The notes: generated by a model from the letters alone, not told the origin. Positions 4,075 through 44,257 are shown, counted from the stretch's first letter. The stretch: DNA of 64,000 nt from a virus (IMGVR_UViG_3300006139_000004:32001-96000); one strand, 5' to 3'. A program made the numbers and translations.

Positions 4075-4497
4075 ATGAGAAAGCCACAGGTCGATAATAA
4101 ATATAATCTTACAATGGCAAAAATTCGCCGTTTGAAGATTGCAGATAGGAGTAAGGTATGTGAACCTTTATTCTGGAGAAATGATGTGATTGAAGCATGG
4201 TGTATCTGTGGAAGCAGCGGGAATGATATGGACAGAAGGTTTGCCACTAACAATGAATTTTGGATTGGCATTTATGATCTGAACGCAAAAGCGTATGCTG
4301 GTAAATTTCGTGTTAGTCTAAGTTCATATGGTGGTATGTGTGGATATGAGTTTAATAAATTTTTTGATGTAAAGGATATTGATAACGAGCAAGATTTAGA
4401 GATACAAGAAAAGTTTTTGGCGAAGATAAATGAACTGATTGACTGTGGAGTTTTAGTGTTTAATACTGAGGCCGCAGAAATTGGGGGGGCAAATTAA
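4075..4497 (+). CDS. hypothetical protein with G7 tract at its 3' end
   Basis: ORF; GGGGGGG at 4483-4489 a few codons before the stop. Confidence 0.6.
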   Translation: MRKPQVDNKYNLTMAKIRRLKIADRSKVCEPLFWRNDVIEAWCICGSSGNDMDRRFATNNEFWIGIYDLNAKAYAGKFRVSLSSYGGMCGYEFNKFFDVKDIDNEQDLEIQEKFLAKINELIDCGVLVFNTEAAEIGGAN

Positions 4498-4555
4498 TTG
4501 ACTTTGTGCAGATTCAAAATAAAGTAATAGAGTTGGCAGCATAAAGCAAAACTAT

Positions 4556-4813
4556 TTGGAGGTAAAGAGAATGTCTAAATCTGTTGAATTGAAAAATTGT
4601 CCATTTTGCGGAGGTAAGGCTTCCCTCACAGAATTTGGTGCTGGTCATGAGGGAGATGGAGTATTTGTAACATCGTATAAGTGTGGTTGTCCTGAATGTG
4701 GAATTTTCTTTAATCGTAAATCAAGGTTCTGTATGGAAGGAACAGAAGTGAAGTTTTTAGAAAATGGGTTTGAGTATGTAACTCAGCATTGGAATAATCG
4801 TATGGGAGAATGA
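4556..4813 (+). CDS. Lar-family restriction alleviation protein (Zn ribbon)
   Basis: LKNCPFCGG ... CPECG ... HWNNR pattern. Confidence 0.65.
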   Translation: MEVKRMSKSVELKNCPFCGGKASLTEFGAGHEGDGVFVTSYKCGCPECGIFFNRKSRFCMEGTEVKFLENGFEYVTQHWNNRMGE

Positions 4814-4985
4814 TTTATGTATTGTAGTGGTGATTGTAAACATTTAAACAGTAAGAATCATATTTGCAAACTTACTGGAGAAAGGCTCTCTCATATGAGG
4901 TATGGTAGTAGAGGGTTTAGATACCATGTACATGAGCATGATGGAATTTGTCAACATGATAAAGAAGAAATGGAGGAAATTAAAA

Positions 4986-5852
4986 ATGGGAAGCAAGCGT
5001 GATAGTCTTGGGGATCGGATGAAAGGCTATGAGAATGTGACACGAACGAAGTTGGTGCGCCGTATGCCTGTCATTATTCGTATTGATGGAAAAGCGTTCC
5101 ACACATTTACAAAGGGGTTTGATAAGCCTTTTGATAGCCTTCTGATGGACGCAATGAATAGGACAATGAAATATCTTTGTGAAAACATTCAAGGCTGTGT
5201 ACTTGGTTACACACAGTCTGATGAGATTTCGTTGCTACTGGTAGACTATCAGACTCTCACTACAGATTCTTGGTTCGATGATACTGTGCAGAAGATGTGT
5301 AGCATTTCTGCAAGTATGGCTACATTGGCTTTTAACAAGGCATGGAAAGAGGTCGTGGATGAGTGGGGCGAAAAGACTTTTGGTAGTTCATGGTTTGAGG
5401 GCGGTACAAATGAGCCTATTGATGAATTGCTGAAGAAAAAGGCAGATACATATTGTTCTAAATATGATCGTGCGTTGTTTGATAGTCGTGTGTTTAATGT
5501 TCCTAAAGAGGATGTTACCAATTATTTTGTCTGGCGGCAGCAGGACGCTACACGCAACAGTATCCAGTCGGCAGGACAGGCGTGTTTTTCACACAGAGAA
5601 CTTATGAATAAGACGTGCAATATGATTCAGGATATGCTTTTCACCGAGAAAGGCATTAATTGGAATGACTATTCTACGTCCTGTAAGCGTGGTACGTGCT
5701 GTGTTAAGCGAATGGTTGACGTTCCTACAGGTAATGTATGCGGTGCTATCCAAGAGGTTGTACGCCGCCAGAAATGGCAACTTGACACAGGTATTCCTAT
5801 TTTTACTCAAGAGCCTAATTACGTTAATAGTCTGGCATTTGTTGGTGACTGA
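4986..5852 (+). CDS. tRNA(His) guanylyltransferase Thg1-like protein (3'-5' polymerase)
   Basis: RMKGYE, IIRIDGKAFHTFT, YTQSDEIS, FDSR, YFVWRQQDATRNS motifs. Confidence 0.92.
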   Translation: MGSKRDSLGDRMKGYENVTRTKLVRRMPVIIRIDGKAFHTFTKGFDKPFDSLLMDAMNRTMKYLCENIQGCVLGYTQSDEISLLLVDYQTLTTDSWFDDTVQKMCSISASMATLAFNKAWKEVVDEWGEKTFGSSWFEGGTNEPIDELLKKKADTYCSKYDRALFDSRVFNVPKEDVTNYFVWRQQDATRNSIQSAGQACFSHRELMNKTCNMIQDMLFTEKGINWNDYSTSCKRGTCCVKRMVDVPTGNVCGAIQEVVRRQKWQLDTGIPIFTQEPNYVNSLAFVGD

Positions 5853-5854
5853 AC

Positions 5855-6565
5855 ATGATTTACTGTACTGGTGATATTCATGGTGATGTGAGAACATTAT
5901 TAAACTGGCTTGACAAATGCCGTATTCCTCATCAAAAGGATCAGATAGTTATTTTGCTTGGAGATGTAGGAGTAAATTATTTCGGTGATTTTCGTGATCA
6001 AGAAGCAAAGGTTATTTTGCAAGATAGCAACCGAACATATTTCTGTATTCATGGCAATCATGAGCGTAGGCCAGAAAGCCTTGCTACATATCATTCTGAT
6101 GTTTGGCATGGTGGAGCGGTTTATATTGAGGACGAATACTCTAATCTTATCTTTGCACAAGATGGAGAGGTGTTTGATCTTGAGGGATTACAGACGCTTG
6201 TGCTTGGTGGTGCATATAGTGTAGATAAGTGGTATCGTCTGCAAAGTAGATACCATTGGTTTGAGGATGAGCAGATACCAGAACAACGGCGAAAGAGTAT
6301 TCTGAAAAATGTAAAGCAACTTGGCAAAGTTGATCTGGTTCTGTCTCATACTTGCCCGTATCAGTGGCAACCTTTTGATTTGTTTTTGTCTGGCATAGAC
6401 CAGAACAGTGTTGATAATTCTACAGAACATTGGCTTGCGGAAGTTGAAAGGAATTTGGATTATCGTTATTGGTTATTTGGACATTTTCATGATGACCGTT
6501 TAATCAACGATAAATCACAGATGCTTTTCAAAAATGTGATTGACTTAGAATTTTTGAAGGAGTGA
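5855..6565 (+). CDS. calcineurin-like metallophosphoesterase
   Basis: GDIHG, LGD, GNHE, SHTCP, GHFH. Confidence 0.9.
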   Translation: MIYCTGDIHGDVRTLLNWLDKCRIPHQKDQIVILLGDVGVNYFGDFRDQEAKVILQDSNRTYFCIHGNHERRPESLATYHSDVWHGGAVYIEDEYSNLIFAQDGEVFDLEGLQTLVLGGAYSVDKWYRLQSRYHWFEDEQIPEQRRKSILKNVKQLGKVDLVLSHTCPYQWQPFDLFLSGIDQNSVDNSTEHWLAEVERNLDYRYWLFGHFHDDRLINDKSQMLFKNVIDLEFLKE

Positions 6566-7906
6566 TTTAATGAATAACGTCTTTATCAAGGGGCAAATTC
6601 CTGACCTGAATTTAGATCGCAAGTTGAACTTGCACAATGGATCGCTGATTATTGTCAAACAAAGAGATACTATAACTGGCATTTATATGGTTGTATCATT
6701 CCGTGATAATAAAAACAAATACAATGGTAGTAATACCACATCGTATTGTTCGCTTGTAAATTTGGATAATGGTTCTCTTGCTTTTGAAGAGCGTTGCAGC
6801 CGTAGCACTACTGTACGTAGAGTTCTTAATCATGTTCTGCGTCTTGGGTTTTCAATGCCTTATAATCCAAACTCTAAAGAAAATGATAATCAAATGAAGG
6901 ATTATGATATTGATTATTATGGAAACGGTGCATATAAACTTGAAGTTGATTTGAGGTGATAATAATGAAATTCGTTTTGGGATTTTTTGTTCTGGCGTAT
7001 ATCATTGTTTTCTTTAATCCGAAGTTGGTGATTTCATATAATGGTGTTCCTACTAATAACTTTTTTGCGAGAGTTTTAGGCGCACTTATAATTAGTCTTA
7101 TATTGACGCTTTTTATTGGTCTGCCGATTATAGGTGTTATCTCATTGTTTATATAGGAGGACTTATGGCGTTTGTACTTGATGAAGAAGGTAATATTATT
7201 GCTTTTAATGATCCAGAAAAAAATATACAGCAAAGTTTGAATTCAATCAAACAAGCGGTTAATTATCTTGTACGGGATAACAAGGCTCTACGTGCTACAT
7301 TAAATCGTTATGACAAAGAGGCTGGTATTAAGGCCAAAGAAGATGAAATTCGATCTATCCAGCAGCGGGCTATTACTGTTCTTTCTCCAAAAGAATATGA
7401 GCGAGACAAGGCTTTTCGAGATCGTCATTATCAACTTTGTAAAAATGGAAGTCGCTTTATTTATGATCTTCAAGGAACAGGCATTGGCACAGTTGTAAAG
7501 ATAAAGTGTCCAATTTGCGGTGCTGAAGAAGATATAACAGATATTGAATCTTGGTAAAGGAGAATTATATGCAATATGTTTTATTTTGCATAGTAGTATT
7601 TCTCATTGGTTATGTAATATATGCTTTAACACATAATGATGGGAGTGTGTTTTGCGATCCAACTGAGTGTGCTACTTGTCCGTTTCCTCATAATGGTTGC
7701 AAACATAGAAAAGAACTGTTCTATTATGATTTGATACGAATGGACGGTCAATATATCTATGTTGAAATTGATCAGAAACTTATTCCAGTTCGAGTACGGT
7801 ATGAGAACAAACTATTGTGGTTTGTAAGTTCAATGGGATCAGTAACCTCGTATGACGATATTGAAAAGGCTGGAGGAAAGTTTTTTAAAAAATTTTCAAA
7901 AACCTC

Positions 7907-7935
7907 TTGACAATAACCAGAAATACAACTATAAT
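7907..7935 (+). promoter_or_regulatory. sigma-A promoter whose 17-bp spacer is the repeated motif
   Basis: TTGACA-ATAACCAGAAATACAAC-TATAAT. Confidence 0.85.
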
Positions 7936-8015
7936 AGGTAGTGTAAGGAGCCAGCGAAAAGCTGGCAATGAATAAGTGGAAATAACCACAAATACAATAA
8001 TAAAGGAGCAAGGTT

Positions 8016-8708
8016 ATGTACATCGAAACGAGCAAAGAAATTGGCAGTAAGGTTTATTTTCTGAAACCGATCCGCAAGGTTAAGTGTAGCCTGTGCAACG
8101 GCACTGGTCACATCTCTCTTGGTAAGCCCCTGAATGTGGAGGATGGTTACGAAAGCCCCAGCGAGTTTGTTCAGTCCCTTGTTCATCAATTTGCAGAGAA
8201 TTATCGGGATGCAGTTATCGGAAACATTAAGCAGTATAAGTGTCCTGAATGTGGTGGCAAGGGTATGGTGAAGGCCATGTCCCCGAAATATGAAGTCGGA
8301 GAAGGAACAGTTGTTGCAATCAATATGATTGCGAATACCAATGGGGCAAATATGATGTTCGCTGTTAGTGAAGAAGGCAATGGTTCTACTCCCCGTAAAC
8401 TGACCGATGATGAGATTTGGTTGGATCGTGATAAGGCTCAGAGGAAATGCGACTTCATGAATCTTGAACGGCGGCTGGTTCCTATTGAGTGTATCCAGAT
8501 TCCACAATCTTTCGCAAAGACCATTCCTTGTAACGAAAAGTTGATGCGGCGGCTGGATGAGTGGCGTAAGGCTCATAAGTTTGAGACTGAGATTTTTGTT
8601 GATGAGAAGCTGAACCTGTTTGATGGGTATACGTCTTTCTTGATGTATCGGATGCTTGGTAAGAATGATGTTCCTGTCGTGATCTGGCCTGACGAAAAGA
8701 GGCCGTGA
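8016..8708 (+). CDS. hypothetical protein with DnaJ-type Zn-finger repeats
   Basis: CSLCNGTG and CPECGGKG motifs. Confidence 0.55.
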   Translation: MYIETSKEIGSKVYFLKPIRKVKCSLCNGTGHISLGKPLNVEDGYESPSEFVQSLVHQFAENYRDAVIGNIKQYKCPECGGKGMVKAMSPKYEVGEGTVVAINMIANTNGANMMFAVSEEGNGSTPRKLTDDEIWLDRDKAQRKCDFMNLERRLVPIECIQIPQSFAKTIPCNEKLMRRLDEWRKAHKFETEIFVDEKLNLFDGYTSFLMYRMLGKNDVPVVIWPDEKRP

Positions 8709-8891
8709 TGGATTTGGCAATCGGCAGCACATATCAAAACAAAAATGGCGATAAAATCAGGGTTTTAGATATATGCGATAGCCTTGATAATAAGCCAAAA
8801 GTGGTGCTGTATAAGAAAAACAAAGGTAAAAAAGTTCTTCAGTCGTTTCAAGAAGTGCTGTTGGAAACATTAAAAGGAAGGAATTGATAAA

Positions 8892-9215
8892 ATGAAAACT
8901 GTCAAAAACGTTCTGCTTGCTTTGCTGGTTGTGGTAATTGTTGTCGGTGGCACATATACCGCCATCAAGTGGGATATGATTGTTGACAAGTGGCAGACAG
9001 AAGCAGATCGAGAAGTATTTAAGCAGACTACGACATACTCTGAGGCCGCTGCATCATTCTTGGCAGATAGTTATAAACAGTATAATGATGCTGAAACAGA
9101 TGCAGATAGGAACACAATCATGGAGTATGTTGTGATGAGGTATCCCAATTTGGATACTGATTCTATTGATAATAGCAAGTTGCGCCAGTTTTATAATCAG
9201 TGTCTCAATCATTAA
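8892..9215 (+). CDS. membrane-anchored protein
   Basis: N-terminal hydrophobic helix. Confidence 0.6.
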   Translation: MKTVKNVLLALLVVVIVVGGTYTAIKWDMIVDKWQTEADREVFKQTTTYSEAAASFLADSYKQYNDAETDADRNTIMEYVVMRYPNLDTDSIDNSKLRQFYNQCLNH

Positions 9216-9233
9216 AAATAAGGAGAATTAAAA

Positions 9234-9770
9234 ATGAAAAAGTTTAAGATTGTAGCTATTGTTCTTTGTGCAGTTCTTATGACTGGTATTTTGGCTGGTT
9301 GTATGTATGAAAGCGAAGAAACACAGTACACAGATCAGTTGAAAGATCAGATTAGTGATATGTATGGTTATCCAAATATATCCAACTTCTTTGAGTATTC
9401 TCAACTTAAAGAGATTTATGAAATGCGTGATAATCCTAATTTGGTTTGTTACTGGTATACTAAAAATGACATGAGCGGTAAATGGATTTATCAAGGAACT
9501 TGTGTTGGTTATGGTATTCCTTATAGTACATCTATTACTGCTCCAGAATCTGTTCAGAAATATAGTAAGCATTATGATTGGCAGATTTTACCCCTTGCAG
9601 AGCCAAATGGCCTTTATACCGATGGTCTGTCTACCTCTGCTACATGGATTTTAACAACTGATGCTAATGGTAATATTTCTCCGACATATGTTGAAAGCGA
9701 GATTACAATTAGCCAAGTAAAGATGGATGCTCGTCTTTGCGAGGACTGGTCTATTCCTAACAACTATTAA
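9234..9770 (+). CDS. lipoprotein
   Basis: signal peptide with lipobox LAGC. Confidence 0.7.
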   Translation: MKKFKIVAIVLCAVLMTGILAGCMYESEETQYTDQLKDQISDMYGYPNISNFFEYSQLKEIYEMRDNPNLVCYWYTKNDMSGKWIYQGTCVGYGIPYSTSITAPESVQKYSKHYDWQILPLAEPNGLYTDGLSTSATWILTTDANGNISPTYVESEITISQVKMDARLCEDWSIPNNY

Positions 9771-9971
9771 GGAGTAATTACAATGGATGATTTTCTGCAT
9801 GAGATTCTTGAAAACACAAAGAAAATGTTTCCGGGCGCAACCAGCGTAAGGATCATGGTCACGAACGAAGATGTAAAAGTTACTGCATCTTATAATGGCG
9901 AACTGTCCGATTATTCAATGAGAAAGATTGATGGATCGTGGTGCAGTAAACGTAAGTAATTCATTCAATAG

Positions 9972-10253
9972 GTGATACATATGGATTTAATCGAAAAATA
10001 TCTGCGTGAACATTCTATTGGCAAAGATTATCCAATTTGTAGCAGCGAATTGGCAGAGGCATTTGGCGTTCCAAGAACTATGATCCGGCATATGATTAAT
10101 GCTGCTCGAAGTAATGGAAGCCCGATATGTTCTGGTCAAAAGGGTTATTATGTAGCAACTGATAAAGAGGAAATCAAAGGCACTATTGACTCATTACGTG
10201 GGCGCATTACAAAAATGGAAAAGGCTATTGCTGGCCTTGAAGCGTGTTTATAA
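9972..10253 (+). CDS. winged helix-turn-helix protein
   Basis: SSELAEAFGVPRTMIRHMI..PICS..KGYY. Confidence 0.65.
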   Translation: MIHMDLIEKYLREHSIGKDYPICSSELAEAFGVPRTMIRHMINAARSNGSPICSGQKGYYVATDKEEIKGTIDSLRGRITKMEKAIAGLEACL

Positions 10254-10294
10254 AACAAATCTCCCTCACTACGTTTGTGGTGAGGGATGGATGT

Positions 10295-10385
10295 GGCAGC
10301 GTGTCGGAGCGGCTTAACGAGGCGGTCTTGAAAACCGTTGGCGACTAATAATCGTCCGTGGGTTCAAATCCCACCGCTGCCGCCA
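10295..10385 (+). tRNA. tRNA-Ser(UGA)
   Basis: Acceptor GGCAGCG/CGCTGCC, anticodon loop CT-TGA-AA, long variable arm, TTCAAAT T-loop, G73, encoded CCA. Confidence 0.92.
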
Positions 10386-10388
10386 TAT

Positions 10389-10481
10389 TGGAGAATGGTG
10401 GAATTGGTAGACACACCGTACTATGGAGCGGCGAAGGTAGCGCAGCCTTCTTTGTAGGTTCGAGTCCTACTTCTCCAGCCA
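10389..10481 (+). tRNA. atypical class II tRNA, anticodon arm one nucleotide short (identity unclear)
   Basis: Acceptor TGGAGAA/TTCTCCA, D-loop GGAATTGGTAGA, long variable arm GAAGGT/GCCTTC, GGTTCGAGTCC, G73-CCA; anticodon arm CCGT-ACTATGGA-GCGG. Confidence 0.75.
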
Positions 10482-10484
10482 AAA

Positions 10485-11108
10485 TTATTTTAGTTCTAAA
10501 CGTTGATTAACTAATCTTTTCATATCGTTTTCCCAAGCGGTCTTTCTATGATTGAGTTTCCATTTGATGTATTCATTCCAGCGAACATTAGAAGCCTCCC
10601 ATGACAGGCCAAAGATATGTTGAATATCCTGTGCCGATTCCACGTTTAGCATTTCATACAAAGGCATAGGGCATAACAAGAGCGCAGCAAAATGATCAGC
10701 TTCGGCCTCAAGTTCTGGATTGGACAGATTGTTGAAATTATTTTCTGCAATATGAGGTTCAGCGATATACGGAAGGTGGTTGAGTGTAACATGACCAAGT
10801 TCATGAGCCAGTGTCCAGCGAATACGTCCTAAAACATTATGATTTTCTCTGGATGAATTGAATAAAACAAGATACCGATTTTTCCCTACGTCATAGTGTG
10901 TGCAACCGCTTTTACTTTCGCATAGAGCAAAGACCTCTTGTAAAGGGCATTGATTAAGTTCTGCAAATTTATTGTATGTCATTGTTTTACAGTTATCCAT
11001 CTGTTCAAAAAACAGTCGTGGATCGAGAGGAAATTTGATACTTGGCAGCTTCTTATAAAGTTGCAAAACTTGATTGCAAATATAAGCGTATCTAATCAAA
11101 GCCATCAC
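10485..11108 (-). CDS. ImmA/IrrE-family metallopeptidase (anti-repressor)
   Basis: RWTLAHELGH and EAEADHFAALLL. Confidence 0.9.
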   Translation of the reverse strand: MMALIRYAYICNQVLQLYKKLPSIKFPLDPRLFFEQMDNCKTMTYNKFAELNQCPLQEVFALCESKSGCTHYDVGKNRYLVLFNSSRENHNVLGRIRWTLAHELGHVTLNHLPYIAEPHIAENNFNNLSNPELEAEADHFAALLLCPMPLYEMLNVESAQDIQHIFGLSWEASNVRWNEYIKWKLNHRKTAWENDMKRLVNQRLELK

Positions 11109-11150
11109 CTCACTTGGATTATATCATAAGTAGTGTCCCATAAAACGGAC

Positions 11151-18443: not shown

Positions 18444-18950
18444 ATGGACAGAGTTTTATTAAGCACTGGTAATAATAGCTGGGGAACTCCGCAGAAGTTC
18501 TTTGACCGCTTGAATCAAGTATTCCGTTTCACTCTTGATCCGTGTGCAGACGAAAACAATCATAAGTGCGATAAATTCTACACTGTGCAGGATGATGGCC
18601 TCTCGCAAAATTGGGGGGGGCAAGTAGTTTTCTGTAATCCACCGTACAGTCGTAGGACGAAGGATAATCCCGGACAAGAGGATTGGATTGAGAAATGTTG
18701 TTCAGAGAGTGAAAACAACAAGATCACAGCGGTCATGCTTATACCAGCAAGAACAGATACAAGGCCACAACACGAATATGTGTTTGCTCATGCAAAGTAT
18801 ATCTGCTTTGTTAGAGGGCGGTTAAAGTTCAACGATGGTGCTGATCCAGCACCGTTCCCAAGTGAAGTTGTTGTTTTCACTCAAGACAACTTTGACAAAG
18901 AAATCAAAGGTCTTTCAGACCTTGGGTTTTGGATTAAATTAAGGGAGTGA
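18444..18950 (+). CDS. phage N6-adenine DNA methyltransferase; G8 tract in frame
   Basis: WGTPQ, FTLDPCA, FCNPPY, LIPARTDT; G8 at 18613-18620. Confidence 0.9.
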   Translation: MDRVLLSTGNNSWGTPQKFFDRLNQVFRFTLDPCADENNHKCDKFYTVQDDGLSQNWGGQVVFCNPPYSRRTKDNPGQEDWIEKCCSESENNKITAVMLIPARTDTRPQHEYVFAHAKYICFVRGRLKFNDGADPAPFPSEVVVFTQDNFDKEIKGLSDLGFWIKLRE

Positions 18951-18956
18951 TGTGAA

Positions 18957-19686
18957 ATTAAATATGTTGGCAGCAAGTCTCGGATCGCCAAGCATATTGT
19001 TCCTATTATTCAGTCATACATCGACAAAACGGACGCAAACTTTTACTTAGAGCCTTTCATCGGGGGGGGCAAATGTAATTGATAAAATTTCTTGCAAGAG
19101 AAAGATTGGTTACGACATTAATCATTACTTGATTGAGTTATTCAAACATTTGGATATGATAGATGGATTGCCAGATGACATTTCAAAGCAAGAGTATAGT
19201 GATGTAAGGAAGTCGTGGCAAAATCAAGACGGTAAATATCCAGATTGGTATATCGGTGTAGTTGGCTTTCTTGCATCATATAACGGAAAGTTTTTCGGTG
19301 GTCGGGCTGGTACAGTAAGAACAAAGATTGGTACAATCAGAAACTACTATGACGAAGCAAAGCGAAACCTGATGACACAAATCCCAAATTTGTCAGGGAT
19401 TGAATTTGGAGAGTTTGATTACCAGCAACTTGATATGTCTAAGTTCAAAGGCGGCGTAATCTACTGCGATATTCCATATAAGAACACAACAGGCTATCAG
19501 CAGACATTTAATCATGATGAGTTTTGGGCGTGGGCTGAACGATGTTCAAGAGACAATATCGTTTTGGTGTCAGAACAGGTATCCCCGGATGGATGGAAGT
19601 CAATCTGGTCGAAGCCAGTTAAACGAACACTGGATAATGCGTCACGGATTGACATTACGGAACAACTATATATTTTTGACAAATAA
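18957..19686 (+). pseudogene. DNA adenine methylase (Dam/D12 class), frameshifted at a G8 tract
   Basis: KYVGSKSRIAK...EPFIGG then +1 shift at 19062-19069; G7 restores GGANVIDKI continuing to YCDIPY; probable ATT start. Confidence 0.85.
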
Positions 19687-19858
19687 CAAGAAATACAAAT
19701 ATTGGAGATGATAATAGCATGACACGTATGGAACGAAAAAGAGTACATAAAATTCGACTTTTAAGCATTGCTGTGATGGTTGTTGCTTTGGCCTGTATCC
19801 TTGCTTGTTGTACTGCTCCCATGCACCCTGTTCCCGCATTTGGTTGAGGGGGTACAGA

Positions 19859-20610
19859 ATGGTAACAGTAGCTAAAACTTGGGGGGGGGGCAAGCACTAC
19901 CACTTGATAAAGGTTCTTTACGAACAAACGTAATATTCAATGATGATTGTATCAAAGGAATGTCATTGATGCCTGATGAATCGGTTGACTTGATTCTGAC
20001 TGATCCTCCATACAATATAAGCGTTAAAAATAATTTCCATACTTTAAAAGGTAGACATGGGATTGATTTTGGAGAATGGGATAAAGGATTTGATTTAACT
20101 GGTTGGATACCTAATGCGATTCGTATTTTAAAAAGTGGTGGAAACATTATTATTTTTAATGCTTGGAGAAATATGGGACAAATTGCAGATATGCTCGAAC
20201 AAAATGGGTGTTTAATAAAAGAAATGATTCAATGGCAAAAGACAAATCCAATGCCACGGAATAGAGATAGACTTTATGTAACTACTTGTGAATTTGCAAT
20301 TTGGGCTACAAAAGGAAAGGGTTGGACTTTTAATAGGCAAAGAGAAACATATGAAAATACAATTTTTGTTTATCCAATCGTTTCTGCAAAGCAAAGATTT
20401 CATCCTACGCAAAAACCGACAGCCCTAATTGAAGATTTGATAAAAATACATAGCAATGAAAAAGACATAATTTGTGATCCTTTTATGGGAAGTGGTTCAA
20501 CAGCATTGGCAGCATTACATACAGGACGCAAGTTTATTGGATATGAACTTGATGAAAAGTATTATGAAGTTGCTTGTCAACGAGTAGATCAAGAAATGAA
20601 AGGGTGTTGA
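19859..20610 (+). pseudogene. N4/N6 site-specific DNA methyltransferase (beta class), out of frame from its ATG at a G10 tract
   Basis: LILTDPPY, HPTQKP, DPFMGSGST; ATG 19859 after RBS joins the MTase frame only with G8 or G11 at 19881-19890. Confidence 0.8.
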
Positions 20611-20611
20611 A

Positions 20612-21900
20612 ATGCAGCCTATTTTCCCGGAATATATACAATTTTTGAAAAGCCATAATTGTGATGTAGATTGGTTCCATGAAAACACTTTTTGGCTTGA
20701 TAACAACATTGTAAAAGCCTTCAGACGGGGGGGCAAGTAGTTTTATTATACCGTGTATCGGTTGATGATAATTTACATCTGACTTTAACTAAGCATAAGC
20801 AGAATAAAAACTTTGATGACTTTGAAACGTGGCAAGAAGCAATTCAGAGAAATCGAAATAGGCTTTACCAGATAGAACAAGAAAGTATAAATTTGTTGCA
20901 ACAATATGGTTTACATACAGATCGAAGAATTATCAATACAAATTCTACTGGTAAAGATAGTATGGTGGTAACTCATCTTGCTAAAAAAGCTGAATTGAAT
21001 TTTGAAACATTCTTTAATGTCACAACACTTGATGTAGCAGAAAGTAATCAAATGGCAAAGCGCAATGGGTATCAGCACATCTTTCCTGATCCTCAATACG
21101 GTGGATTTTATCAATATGTTCATAATAGCAGAATGATACCAAATAGATTTACAAGATTTTGTTGTCAATATTTCAAGGAAAGGCCAACAATAGATTATTT
21201 CAACGCAGATGACAAACTTTTGTTTATGTTTGGTATTCGTAACGGAGAAAGTAATCAGCGATCAAACTATGAGGATATTATAAAGAATCCATTATGGGGT
21301 AATCGTGATTGGATAGGGGTTTTACCTATTCGCAAGTGGTCAGAATTAGATATTTGGCTTTATATTCTTGCAGAAGATATTGAAGTAAATCCTAAATACA
21401 AATATGGATATACAAGAGTTGGATGTGGAATTGCTTGTCCGTATTATACAAAATACACATGGGTTCTTGATAAGTTCTGGTATCCATATCTTTATAATCG
21501 TTGGAGAGATATTCTTCGTAATGATTTTGTCAGTAACAATAAATGGCTGATTATGAATTGCACAATTAAAGAATATGTTACAAAAGCATGGACAGGTGGT
21601 GTCTTTCGTACAGAGCCAACAGATGAGGTCATTCAGGAATATGCAGAACATTCCGGGTTAGATATAGAAGTTGCGAAAAAGTATTTCAACCGATATTGTT
21701 CAAATGGCTGTATTAGCAAGCGAAGTCAGCCATTAAAAATAAAAGATAAAAACACTTTAGCAATGAACATGAAGATGTTTGGTCGTGATATTGAGAAATT
21801 CAAATGCAAGAAGTGTTTAATGAAAGAGTTTGGATGGACTCAAGAACAATGGAATAAACAAGTTAATGAATTCAAAAATCAAGGATGCAGACTATTTTGA
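20612..21900 (+). pseudogene. PAPS-reductase-family protein, frameshifted at a G7 tract
   Basis: NSTGKDS, RFCC..FKE, GIR..ES..R, PIRKWSELDIW, RVGC; ATG 20612 frame hits TAG just after 20727-20733; G8 fuses it to ORF 20893-21900. Confidence 0.85.
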
Positions 21901-21912
21901 TTATAAGGAGAG

Positions 21913-22317
21913 ATGCTAATGAAAATTTACTATGCTCATCATGTTTGGAAGTACGATACGCCTATAGAAAATTTTGAAATCAAGTGTATTGAACGGCAAT
22001 TTAAAGATGCAGTTATTGTAAATCCTCGCACAACCATCCCGCAAGATCAACCAGAAAGCGTCATTCTTGATTACGCATATAAAGCACTCGATGACTGTGA
22101 GGCTATTGTGTTCTCTACATTTTCAGGAATGATCGGACATGGAGTATTTAATGAAATCATCTATGCTTTTAATGCTGGAAAGAAAGTATATCAGCTTGAC
22201 GGAACTGAATGTATTGAAATTAGAAGTTACACAGATTTTATTGAGCATGGAATTCGTGATTTTATTTTCCGTGGTGATAACAGAATGTACGCCGTTGTAA
22301 ATTCTCCATGTTGGTGA
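21913..22317 (+). CDS. nucleoside 2-deoxyribosyltransferase-like protein
   Basis: KIYYAH...VNP...CEAIVF...GVFNEIIYAFNAGKKV pattern. Confidence 0.55.
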   Translation: MLMKIYYAHHVWKYDTPIENFEIKCIERQFKDAVIVNPRTTIPQDQPESVILDYAYKALDDCEAIVFSTFSGMIGHGVFNEIIYAFNAGKKVYQLDGTECIEIRSYTDFIEHGIRDFIFRGDNRMYAVVNSPCW

Positions 22318-22318
22318 T

Positions 22319-23194
22319 GTGATGGGATTAAGAGTTTTATCAATTTGTGGTGGTCTTGAAACTGGATTGCTGGCTTTAAAAGAATTAGGAATACCAGTTG
22401 ATGAATACCATACTTATGAAATTTTTGAACCAGCTATCGAACTTAGTAAAAGGCATTTTCCTGAAATTATTCATCATGGAGATGTTATTGGAGCAGATTT
22501 TTCACAGTTTAAAGGTTTTGATCTGGTGATGGCTGGTACGTGCTGCCAGAGTTTATCGGTAGTCCGGCAAGAAAACAATCAAGTATGTTCAGGACTGAAG
22601 GGCAAATCTGGCATTTTCTTTGAGTATGCAAGAGCCGTCAAAGAAATTCAGCCAAAATGGTTCCTGTTGGAGAATGTAGTTCCAAAAAGCAAGACTGATC
22701 AGAATATTATTACCGATAACTTGGGGGGGCAAATTCCTCAGTTGATAAATTCAAATCTCTTTTCTGCACAAGACAGGGAGAGATTGTATTGGACGAATAT
22801 TCATATTGGTTCGCTGCCTAAATTAAACACAACCGTCCTGAAAGATATAATGGTATCAGATGCGCCAGAGAAAGATTATTATGATAAACCATATATCTTT
22901 CATGGTGAAGATAAAAAAGTAATCGCTACATTACAAGTTAATACACATGATATGTTGAAACGAGTTTACAATCCTCAATTTAAATGTGCAACTTTGACTT
23001 GTGTGAATGGTGGTTATCAAGAAAAGAAAGTTTGGGATAATGGACGTATTCGCAAACTGACACCTGTTGAGTATGAGAGGTTACAAACATTGCCAGATAA
23101 TTTTACAGAAGGATATAGTGACAATGTTCGGCGTTCACTCTGCGGCAATGGGTGGACAAAAGAGGTTATAAAGCATATTTTCAAGGGCTTATAA
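22319..23194 (+). CDS. C5 cytosine DNA methyltransferase; G7 tract in frame
   Basis: LSICGG, GTCCQ (PCQ variant), FLLENV, QDRERLY, ERLQTLP, GNGW; G7 at 22723-22729. Confidence 0.9.
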   Translation: MMGLRVLSICGGLETGLLALKELGIPVDEYHTYEIFEPAIELSKRHFPEIIHHGDVIGADFSQFKGFDLVMAGTCCQSLSVVRQENNQVCSGLKGKSGIFFEYARAVKEIQPKWFLLENVVPKSKTDQNIITDNLGGQIPQLINSNLFSAQDRERLYWTNIHIGSLPKLNTTVLKDIMVSDAPEKDYYDKPYIFHGEDKKVIATLQVNTHDMLKRVYNPQFKCATLTCVNGGYQEKKVWDNGRIRKLTPVEYERLQTLPDNFTEGYSDNVRRSLCGNGWTKEVIKHIFKGL

Positions 23195-23824
23195 CAATAA
23201 ATACAACAAGAAAGAAGGTATAAGATGGCAAAGATTGTAGAGTTAGAAAGTGGCACTAATCCTGTTGAGGAAGTTACTGATCCAAAGCAGAAGGCAAAGA
23301 ACGAGACAGAGGAAATGATTCAGCGTTTGATGAAAAAGGCATATGTGCTTGGATTGTCTGCTGGTATGAAAACCATGTGTGGTTCTATTCTTGAGAAGAT
23401 GAATCAGAATAAGAATCTTAATCCTCAGAAGCAGTTGATGCTTTTACGTCAGTGGTGTAATCACAATTTGGCAATTAACAACAAACAGGACGAGAACAAC
23501 GATACAGAAAGCAAGTCAGAGGAAACTACAAATAATACAGATAAAAAGGAGAATGAAAATGATGCGTAAGTCACAGAGCAATTCCACTATTTTGACCGAA
23601 AAGGCGGCGCAGTTAGACAGTCTGATGAAGGATTCTGAGAACGCAGTATCCGTGATTACCACAACGATTGATAGGCTGGCAAATGTAAATGCCCGTATCA
23701 ATTCTACTCGTCAGGAGATTGAGTCCTATAAGGCCGAACTTGAGCGTTTGGATGGTTCTATGGAGCAGCAGTTCTCTCACAACGCTAAGATCATCGAGAA
23801 GTTTAAGAACTTTCTGGAGGACTA

Positions 23825-40417: not shown

Positions 40418-42514
<2,097 letters not shown>

Positions 42515-43139: not shown

Positions 43140-44257
43140 ATGGGAGAATACACTTATACCAATGAGGACTTGATTAAAATGCAATCACGTCCTTTTAATA
43201 CAAAGCTGCAAGTAACAACTGCAAAGTTCCTTGAGTTTTGTCAAAAGACTGAATATAATGTTTCCCTCTCATTTTCGGGGGGGCAGATAGTTCAGTTTTG
43301 TTAGATATGTTTGCAAAGTTTTGGTCATTGCATCGTGAACAGCATGGTAATAAACCCTTGCTTGTTATTTATGCAAATACAAGCAACGAATTTGCGTCTA
43401 TGCCAAAACACGTTAAATTCTTTTGCGAATATATTGAAAACAAATATGATATAAAAATTGATTTGCACATTGTACGAAGCAAGATTACTTTCTTTGATGT
43501 TGTAAAAACTGAAGGGTATCCAGTGGCAAGCAAGAAAGTTGCTCGAATGATCCGTGACGTAAAGGAATTTCTTGATGAAAGAGGTTTGAAATATGAGGAC
43601 GATATTGAACCGTATCTTGATCAGGGAATTGAAACAGCAAACTATTTGCGCTCTATTAACTGTCCTGCGACTATCGTATTAAGACTTTCTGGATACACCA
43701 GAGATAACAACATCTCAAAAACATGGTCAATTCCAAAGAAATGGAGATTTTTAATCAATGCGCCATTTCCAATTAGTGAACATTGTTGTGATATTCTTAA
43801 AAAGCAGCCGATTAAACTTGTTCAAAAGGAAGTAAAAGCTAATCCTATTTATGGGACTTTAGCCGAAGATAGTCAAATGCGGCGAAATGCTTACTTAAAA
43901 ACAGGCTGCAATGCTTTTAAAGATGGTCATGGTAAGTCAACTCCTATGGGATTTTGGACTCGACAGGATATATTAAGATACCTACATGATTTTAATATTC
44001 CCATTGCACCTCCATATGGCGAGATAGTTCAACTTGAAAATGGTAAATTTGAGTTTACCAAAGAACATAATACAGGATGTAAATTATGCTTGTTTGGTTG
44101 TCATTTAGAGAAAGAGCCAAATCGTATTCAGCGTTTAGCTGATATTGAGCCAAACACTTATAAGTTCGTGATGAAAAGTCGTGAGGAAGGTGGTCTTGGT
44201 TATCGTGAAGTAATGGATTATTTAGGAATACCTTATGAAAACAAAGGAGATACATGA
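43140..44257 (+). pseudogene. second PAPS-reductase-family protein, frameshifted at a G7 tract
   Basis: SFSGG then shift at 43277-43283; G8 gives SFSGGADSSVLL continuing to CCDILKK, PMGFW, TGCKLC. Confidence 0.85.

Follow-up and report, generated by a model that had tools for sequence, protein, structure and literature searches.

Gene content of the cassette

Inspection of a 64,000-nucleotide stretch of viral DNA (IMGVR_UViG_3300006139_000004:32001-96000, hereafter the window), which spans bases 32001-96000 of one virus record of 133,491 bp, revealed a cassette of six genes (g1 to g6, window positions 18,444 to 23,194) in which four DNA methyltransferase genes and one PAPS-reductase-family gene each contain a run of at least seven G residues. 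A second PAPS-reductase gene with a G run was found elsewhere in the window, and the cassette itself sits 3′ of a gene for a Pnkp-phosphatase-RNA-ligase fusion. The phage genome has a GC content of 38%; its ends overlap, giving a circular assembly of a metagenome-type contig. Gene identities were assigned with Pfam, NCBIfam, PHROGs and PADLOC, and the features are listed in Table 1, where ON denotes an in-frame gene and OFF a gene whose downstream part is out of frame.

Table 1. Genes and G runs of the phage, with coordinates counted from the first base of the window
Feature	Coordinates	Strand	G run	State or remark
g1, phage N6-adenine methyltransferase (PF05869, NPPY)	18444-18950	+	G8, 18613-18620	in frame (ON)
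g2, D12-class Dam-like N6-adenine methyltransferase (PF02086)	18957-19686	+	G8, 19062-19069	OFF; ON at G7
g3, N4/N6 methyltransferase (PF01555, DPPY)	19859-20610	+	G10, 19881-19890	ON at G8/G11
g4, PAPS-reductase-family PP-loop protein, BrxP-like	20612-21900	+	G7, 20727-20733	OFF; ON at G8
g5, 134-aa protein	21913-22317	+	without tract	kept at 45-96% identity in relatives
g6, C5-cytosine methyltransferase (PF00145)	22319-23194	+	G7, 22723-22729	past motif ENV; in frame (ON)
Second PAPS-reductase (PF01507, phrog_424)	43140-44257	+	G7, 43277-43283	OFF; ON at G8
Pnkp-phosphatase-RNA ligase fusion, tRNA-repair type (Pfam AAA_33, Metallophos, RNA_lig_T4_1)	16224-18416	+	G6, 17019-17024	in frame
140-aa open reading frame without family match (Pfam, PHROG, PADLOC)	4075-4497	+	G7, 4483-4489	two codons 5′ of stop
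Intergenic, 5′ leader of NAD-dependent DNA ligase gene		+	G7, 40461-40467	

All four methyltransferases (PF05869, PF02086, PF01555 and PF00145) score above the curated gathering thresholds and have their catalytic motifs. The scores were 93 bits for g1 (cut-off 28.1, with a further match to TIGR01712), 150 bits for g3 (cut-off 26.7) and 90 bits for g6 (cut-off 22; motifs TCCQ and ENV), while g2 reached 22.8 bits against a cut-off of 22 and its intact ortholog in L032, from the Flintibacter muris prophage described below, 50 bits. Catalytic motifs are intact throughout the set (NPPY, DIPY, DPPY, TCCQ/ENV and the PP-loops). No cognate nuclease was seen for these orphan Type II-like methyltransferases. 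The g4 product matches PF01507 with 80 bits (cut-off 22.5) as well as phrog_424, and has the PP-loop STGKDS; its PADLOC match to BrxP (1e-27) is confined to the catalytic part, at profile positions 74-359 of 779, and lacks a BREX context. The second PAPS-reductase scores 26 bits against the same PF01507 cut-off. Both proteins are members of the PF01507 family and not BrxP proper. The g5 product has no Pfam, PHROG, NCBIfam or PADLOC match. Megablast of the cassette against GenBank phages returned one match of 279 bp with 73% identity and nothing more, indicating that there is no cultured close relative.

Distribution of G runs in the genome

Eight runs of seven or more G were found in the 133,491-bp genome (five G7, two G8 and one G10), and all eight are on the + strand, sense to the genes, and within the window. 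The genome-wide G/C run counts are 78/93 at length 4, 7/10 at length 5 and 2/3 at length 6; no C run of at least 6 is present in the window, and the longest runs of A or T are of 7. In 200 second-order Markov simulations the mean number of runs of at least 7 was 0.58 and the maximum 3. The tracts are over-represented relative to composition, as is characteristic of contingency loci. Codon usage gave a similar picture: of the Gly codons GGG is the least used (11%), yet GGG-GGG pairs occur 8 times where 2.0 are expected.

Seven of the eight runs are located in open reading frames (ORFs), and six lie within the four methyltransferase and two PAPS-reductase genes, which make up about 4% of the genome. 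The original prediction, drawn from the sequence alone, had described the tracts as concentrated in modification genes, with only two other runs of G7 or more (4483 and 40461). Re-inspection of the sequence bore out this concentration, the number of runs outside, and all nine coordinates and lengths, those of the eight runs and of the G6 at 17019.

The tracts code for Gly-Gly, several of them within conserved motifs. At seven of the eight the 3′ context is CA[AG], four have AAnTT on the 5′ side, and g1 and g4 have in common 18 identical bases spanning the tract. A role of the CA[AG] context as recognition site or mechanistic requirement is not supported, since T or C is found there in relatives of the L008 type.

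Reading frames of the tract-bearing genes

Of the six tract-bearing modification genes, four are out of frame by one base. The g1 tract encodes W-G-G immediately 5′ of NPPY, and in related phages (see below) G8 is ON and G7 or G9 is off. The g2 tract falls in the EPF-x-GGG motif for S-adenosylmethionine (SAM), with G7 ON and G6 or G8 off in relatives. For g6, both ON and off alleles are found among relatives, and in L011 the interrupted tract GGGGGAG locks the gene ON. The tract of the second PAPS-reductase lies inside the PP-loop motif SGGxDS, where G8 would restore an SGGADS PP-loop; the corresponding tract in the F. muris prophage is G9.

The g3 tract is located eight codons into the gene as counted from ATG 19859, which has the ribosome-binding site (RBS) GAGGGGG. 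The G10 length is OFF for that ATG, and is in frame with a TTG at 19879 that is formed with the first G of the tract. The frame states originally predicted therefore hold for g1, g2, g4, g6 and the second PAPS-reductase, and for g3, which had been called off, they hold from the ATG but not from the TTG. The leader, tract and first ~40 codons of g3, as far as DPPY, are nearly identical between window positions 19859-20020 and L002:3560-3760, whereas the remaining body is only 45% identical. To judge from this alignment, the switch was conserved while the enzyme body, and probably the specificity with it, seems to have been exchanged.

No ATG, GTG or TTG start is present for g2 (window 18941-18959); an ATT lies 5 nt past the extended Shine-Dalgarno GAGGTGAT. 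In all relatives the start codon is ATT, ATA or ATC at a constant distance from this element, so that it appears to be a conserved non-canonical start, presumably weak. A missing start as a second lesion of g2 was rejected on the same grounds.

A repeated motif (ATAACAAGAAATACAA-like) was observed at 18408-18425, 19681-19698 and 40427-40444, just 5′ of g1, of g3 and of the ligase promoter region, respectively. The cassette is probably controlled by a phage-wide operator network.

Tract length in independent copies of the phage

The phage was found, nearly identical, in mouse-gut metagenomes from at least 14 studies. Logan consensus contigs from four independent mouse-gut runs (X24, X20, X15 and X4) were compared with window positions 4400-23400, a region of 19 kb (Table 2).

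Table 2. Length of the G runs in the window and in four independent mouse-gut runs
Copy	4483	g1	g2	g3	g4	g6
Window	G7	G8	G8	G10	G7	G7
X24	G8	no change listed	G6	G7	G7	G8 (off)
X20	G7	G8	G7 (ON)	G7	G8 (ON)	G7
X15	G7	G8	G8	G11 (ON)	G7	G7
X4	G7	G8	G8	G10 major, G7 minor	G7	G7

Length differs at five of the seven G runs in this region and at none of the 18 A/T runs of six or more. Over positions 16138-23400, X20 has no substitutions and three tract changes. Tract polymorphism among otherwise identical genomes, far above other mutations, is a further characteristic of contingency loci. The X4 contigs are interrupted precisely at the G10 tract of g3, with a minor G7 contig also present; this is the one hint of switching within a population. 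As had been foreseen, each broken gene can be mended by a change of one nucleotide, and three of the four repairs were found to occur naturally: G7 in g2 and G8 in g4 (both in X20), and G11 in g3 (X15).

Indel errors are well known to arise in homopolymers, the genome is a metagenome-type contig, and it was consensus contigs that were inspected. The true lengths could on these grounds be in frame and invariant, with the frameshifts as homopolymer miscalls. However, the A/T runs are constant in the same data and the other long genes are all intact. Length differences of -2, -3 and +4 are seen besides those of +/-1, and consensus lengths at 10-450x depth differ among studies. The evidence from related phages, given in the next section, speaks against miscalls as well.

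Other differences between the copies were also observed. At window positions 16010-16085, within an ORF on the - strand (15305-16282), all four runs have dozens of substitutions and identical flanks, which is the signature of an active variable region of a diversity-generating retroelement (DGR), in a non-structural protein adjoining the cassette. At 14802-14835 the contigs of all four runs exit into 23S-rRNA-like sequence and depth spikes in the bin, indicating that the phage bears a stretch identical to bacterial 23S rRNA. Sequencing runs labelled 'organism A' were considered as a clue to the host and rejected, as they are metagenome-sized (0.6-2.6 million contigs).

Tracts in related phages

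A protein search with g4 found 27 viral contigs (55-81% identity) and 5 genome contigs, and in-silico frame calls were made for 30 relatives. In about 20 relatives (63-90% aa identity) tracts of G5-G11 are located at the orthologous codons of g1, g2, g3, g4 and g6, and each of these genes was seen both ON and OFF. ON alleles are open along the whole gene, and OFF alleles in the 30 relatives are broken at the tract alone, with no other lesion. Taken over the window and these relatives, the frame is toggled in silico by tract length, as expected of contingency loci. The g4 tract ranges from G6 to G11. Additional tracts are found in some lineages, namely a second one in g4, ~410 nt downstream of the first, a C8 run in a further methyltransferase, or a total of ten in 13 kb; in AT-rich relatives (27-31% GC) the genes are intact and have no tracts.

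Comparison of near-identical pairs gave 20 single-nucleotide polymorphisms (SNPs) and 2 indels for L020/L021, 17 SNPs and 5 indels for L014/L022, and 89 SNPs and 4 indels for L008/L014. All 11 indels fall in G/C tracts, and some alter the length by two bases; we regard the evidence of these pairs as decisive. The comparison of lengths across related phages proposed in the original prediction thus revealed variation at orthologous tracts in about 20 relatives. The invariant lengths that would point to sequencing error were found neither among assemblies of the same phage, nor in near-identical pairs, nor in these relatives.

Three further observations argue against homopolymer miscalls. An Illumina-type isolate assembly (165x) has the same tracts in mixed states; a lineage-specific change of one nucleotide beside the tract moves the ON length for g4 and g6; and one relative has an interrupted tract. 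We regard sequencing or assembly error as scarcely credible.

Selection on the genes and on the tracts

The proportions of synonymous (pS) and non-synonymous (pN) differences were determined for the window versus the F. muris prophage. The pS values are saturated (0.67-0.79), and pN is 0.09-0.16 for the tract-bearing genes, similar to the 0.078 of the DNA polymerase, and 0.25 for g5. Saturated pS together with low pN indicates that the tract-bearing genes are maintained and are not decaying. Runs of the rarest Gly codon have outlasted synonymous saturation at the same positions, which argues that the tracts themselves are selected.

These data also bear on the possibility that the tracts are neutral hot spots in dispensable genes, Gly-Gly accidents in which OFF is the first step of decay and switching is unselected. 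Several genes are indeed OFF in the majority of genomes, g4 especially, and accessory methyltransferases come and go, as seen for a 535-bp gene that is present in L032 and not in L003. However, the tracts persist at the same codons at a pS of ~0.7-0.8, made up of the rarest Gly codon in genes of low pN, and OFF alleles are without secondary stops or indels. Tract-bearing D12 and C5 methyltransferases and a tract-bearing PAPS-reductase are also found in an unrelated high-GC element of the same host and in a second type of cassette (see below). Neutral decay is therefore considered very unlikely.

Recoding is a different possibility. Long homopolymers can induce transcriptional slippage, and many genomes keep genes one base off frame under purifying selection; if RNA polymerase or the ribosome slipped on the G run, OFF alleles would still be expressed. 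Against this, no fixed frame is found, as OFF alleles of +1 as well as -1 phase occur and ON alleles are common too; no conserved downstream stimulatory element was seen, and variation at the DNA level suffices to account for the states. Recoding as the explanation is unlikely, and as a 'leaky OFF' it would fit with switching by tract length.

G runs outside the six modification genes

The G6 run in the Pnkp-phosphatase-RNA ligase fusion gene (Table 1) is G7, and the gene frameshifted, in L002 and L006, the flanks in L002 being 99.5-100% identical at the amino acid level. The set of switches therefore reaches this gene, with the G6 at 17019 apparently serving as a seventh switch, weaker than the others, in a gene for tRNA repair.

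Length changes of the G7 run at 4483 merely exchange the C-terminal tail of the 140-aa product (2 to 18 aa). A switch fusing two ORFs was considered for this run and rejected, since every length terminates within 18 codons. The intergenic G7 run at 40461 lies between an upstream TTGACA/TATACT promoter and the true start of the ligase gene downstream, ATG 40533; the ligase domains begin 85 aa into the TTG-initiated ORF called by the ORF finder. No tract is present at this place in the F. muris prophage. Being intergenic, the run does not act by frameshift, and it was also rejected as an ATG-start switch for the ligase, as ATG 40533 has its own RBS and the F. muris prophage has no tract.

Host, lifestyle and related elements

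The phage is a temperate one of mouse-gut Clostridia (Oscillospiraceae). Among its genes are those for a tyrosine integrase, a DnaE-type polymerase, a DnaB-like helicase and an anaerobic ribonucleotide reductase. Contig 4 of Flintibacter muris DSM 110149 was found to contain a collinear relative with 70-82% nucleotide identity, extending from 1 to ~122,000 with a GC content of 37%. The integrase marks its end, beyond which lie 73 kb of 57%-GC chromosome, and we conclude from this that it is an integrated prophage. In this prophage g1 and g2 are ON, and g4, g6 and the second PAPS-reductase are OFF. G/C tracts of at least 8 number 7 in the 122-kb prophage, versus ~29 in the other 4.4 Mb of F. 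muris.

A 535-bp insertion with an extra small methyltransferase gene containing a C8 run was observed in the F. muris prophage (L032:6181-6708). It is absent from metagenomic contigs with more than 99% identity to the prophage in g4, as seen in the comparison with L003. The F. muris chromosome (L049 and L050) has a host G11 run in a hexapeptide-transferase gene and a host G10 run between Polysacc_synt_2 and radical-SAM/SPASM genes, in a 39%-GC island. Surface polysaccharide is probably phase-variable in this host.

Tracts were also found in two further loci. On F. muris contig C71 (L055, 1875-4078), an unrelated element of 59% GC, which encodes a family A DNA polymerase, has G11 at the FxGGG site of its D12 methyltransferase and two G8 runs in its C5 methyltransferase; this looks like convergent use of the same poly-G device. 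In a second isolate genome (L056, G002 contig C368, 2398-8134), eight G/C runs of 8-10 nt are spread through 6 kb that contain fragments of C5 methyltransferase, a PAPS-reductase and small ORFs, with an AAA_33 kinase gene adjoining; the locus is a second version of the cassette in which the tracts are more densely packed. Taken together, the tracts in these two loci indicate that the device is recurrent in mobile elements of these Clostridia.

The temperate lifestyle raises the alternative of a prophage-borne phasevarion, in which the switches would act mainly in the lysogen, through methylation of the host chromosome and not through protection of the virion. The effects would then be on host gene expression, on compatibility of the DNA with the cell's own or incoming restriction, or on superinfection immunity. 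Such an arrangement would be consistent with the tyrosine integrase and the integrated relative in F. muris DSM 110149, with the role of bacterial phase-variable methyltransferases as regulators (PMC5909438), and with the host's own G10 and G11 tracts in polysaccharide-synthesis loci. However, the cassette lies among early or replication-type genes (RNA ligase, helicase, polymerase) and its promoters have operator-like repeats, which suggests lytic expression, and the co-switched tRNA-repair ligase and BrxP-like proteins resemble counter-defence functions. We consider a phasevarion unlikely as the main role of the switches, with regard both to where they would act and to the effects named.

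Proposed switching mechanism

The G runs of the phage alter the reading frame of the genes that contain them, are polymorphic in length and are conserved under purifying selection. Our interpretation, to which we assign a probability of about 0.8, is that they are heritable simple-sequence contingency switches that give combinatorial ON/OFF states of the modification genes, with bet-hedging as the most likely benefit. Slipped-strand mispairing during DNA replication would add or remove a G, and the part of the gene downstream would thereby be shifted into or out of frame. Each methyltransferase and PAPS-reductase gene would toggle ON and OFF independently and reversibly, the enzyme being lost in the OFF state. 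A phage population or lysogen lineage would then be a mix of phasotypes with different active DNA-modification enzymes and presumably distinct methylation patterns. The 64 modification states originally predicted for six switches are an upper figure and only arithmetic. Selection would hold the runs long at fixed codons, typically those for the Gly-Gly of conserved motifs, and the benefit may lie in hedging between restriction enzymes that are blocked by a mark and modification-dependent nucleases that attack it.

Several points weigh against this interpretation. The g4 gene is OFF in most genomes, and among 13 two-tract relatives none has both tracts ON; g4 may rarely be useful when ON, or an internal start may bypass the switch. 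The commonest phase of g3 (G7/G10), counted here as 'OFF', has the TTG in frame and may represent low expression. Differences from sample to sample could in principle be fixed strain differences, and the selective arena of a temperate phage could be the lysogen rather than virion DNA. The PAPS-reductase proteins are presumed to act on DNA, and the strong CA[AG] context at seven of the eight tracts is a feature for which the interpretation does not account.

Phages are usually viewed as bearing fixed protective DNA marks. If the contingency-switch interpretation is correct, one phage genotype can yield progeny in which up to six or seven functions of modification and repair are combined differently, by a device conserved through a family of abundant gut phages. 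This would account for how such phages cope with hosts that have both classical restriction enzymes and modification-dependent nucleases, and it would render methylation-based host assignment and the typing of phage 'strains' unstable. Since the phage is temperate, switching could also act on the lysogen. For annotation, such off-frame genes should not be labelled pseudogenes or 'corrected'.

In a broader sense, the switches may form a conserved multi-switch 'phasome' over a counter-defence cassette of four to five orphan methyltransferases, two BrxP-like PP-loop enzymes and a tRNA-repair ligase, in widespread ~130-kb temperate phages of gut Oscillospiraceae, with unrelated elements of the same host having converged on the device, down to the D12 FxGGG site. 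We regard the odds of this broader proposal as about even. If it is true, combinatorial poly-G epigenome bet-hedging would be a general, selected strategy of gut phages beside adhesin diversification by DGR, and not a curiosity of Campylobacter or T-even phages. The system is of interest because it is multi-locus, conserved and selected, and because a lysogen is available: F. muris DSM 110149 is held in a public culture collection, which makes the system directly testable.

Comparison with known systems

Hypermutable poly-G tracts have been described in receptor-binding proteins of Campylobacter phages (Sorensen et al. 2021, Cell Rep 35:109214, cited in PMC12823448). As far as the description in PMC12823448 goes, the two systems have in common poly-G inside phage genes, frame switching, phenotypically mixed progeny and a host that is itself poly-G phase-variable. 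On the same description, the Campylobacter phages are virulent, T4-like and infect a Gram-negative host, with tracts in receptor-binding and tail genes; the phage reported here is temperate, infects Clostridia and has its tracts in genes for DNA modification and counter-defence. Here no structural gene bears a tract, and the adhesin is diversified by a DGR instead.

In phage T2, an A run in the alpha-glucosyltransferase gene agt switches glucosylation and so enables T2 to alternate between TgvAB and McrBC hosts, and agt frameshifts are reversible at ~1000-fold the reversion rate of point mutations (Gomez, Barrick and Waters, bioRxiv 10.1101/2025.10.21.683753). Both cases involve a homopolymer within a gene by which a phage modifies its DNA, and the logic is the same as that of the hedging between opposing restriction systems put forward in the original prediction. 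The T2 case concerns one gene with A runs of ~9 nt, which are expected from the AT-rich composition, and was shown experimentally; the present data are comparative and concern six to seven genes, with G runs that are unexpected from composition and conserved in a phage family.

Bacterial phasevarions comprise Type III mod, Type I hsd and the Type IIG cj0031 of C. jejuni, which has a poly-G tract (PMC5909438, PMC4889913). The switches of the phage are similar to bacterial phase-variable methyltransferases in having a simple-sequence repeat in the methyltransferase ORF and stochastic ON/OFF states. Bacterial phasevarions are, however, chromosomal parts of restriction-modification systems, usually with one to few switches per genome, and act as global regulators, whereas the present methyltransferases are Type II-like orphans that cluster on a phage.

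In Bordetella phage BPP-1 (AY029185), the only G/C run of at least 7 (8 nt) lies within the adenine methyltransferase gene bpm. BPP-1 is likewise temperate and DGR-carrying with a tract in an adenine methyltransferase; unlike the present phage, it has a single tract, which is annotated in frame. The 'Quimbyviridae' gut phages are described as being of Bacteroides type and ~75 kb in size (Benler et al. 2021, PMC8008677). A resemblance in gene neighbourhood is taken from that text alone, and the host here belongs to the Oscillospiraceae and not to Bacteroides; the text does not contain the word 'homopolymer' or mention methyltransferase phase variation. In the literature on poly-G phase variation of phage-encoded methyltransferases, on Quimbyviridae and on Flintibacter prophages, no prior multi-gene description was found. 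The mutational trick itself is a known one, here applied to a whole set of anti-restriction genes.

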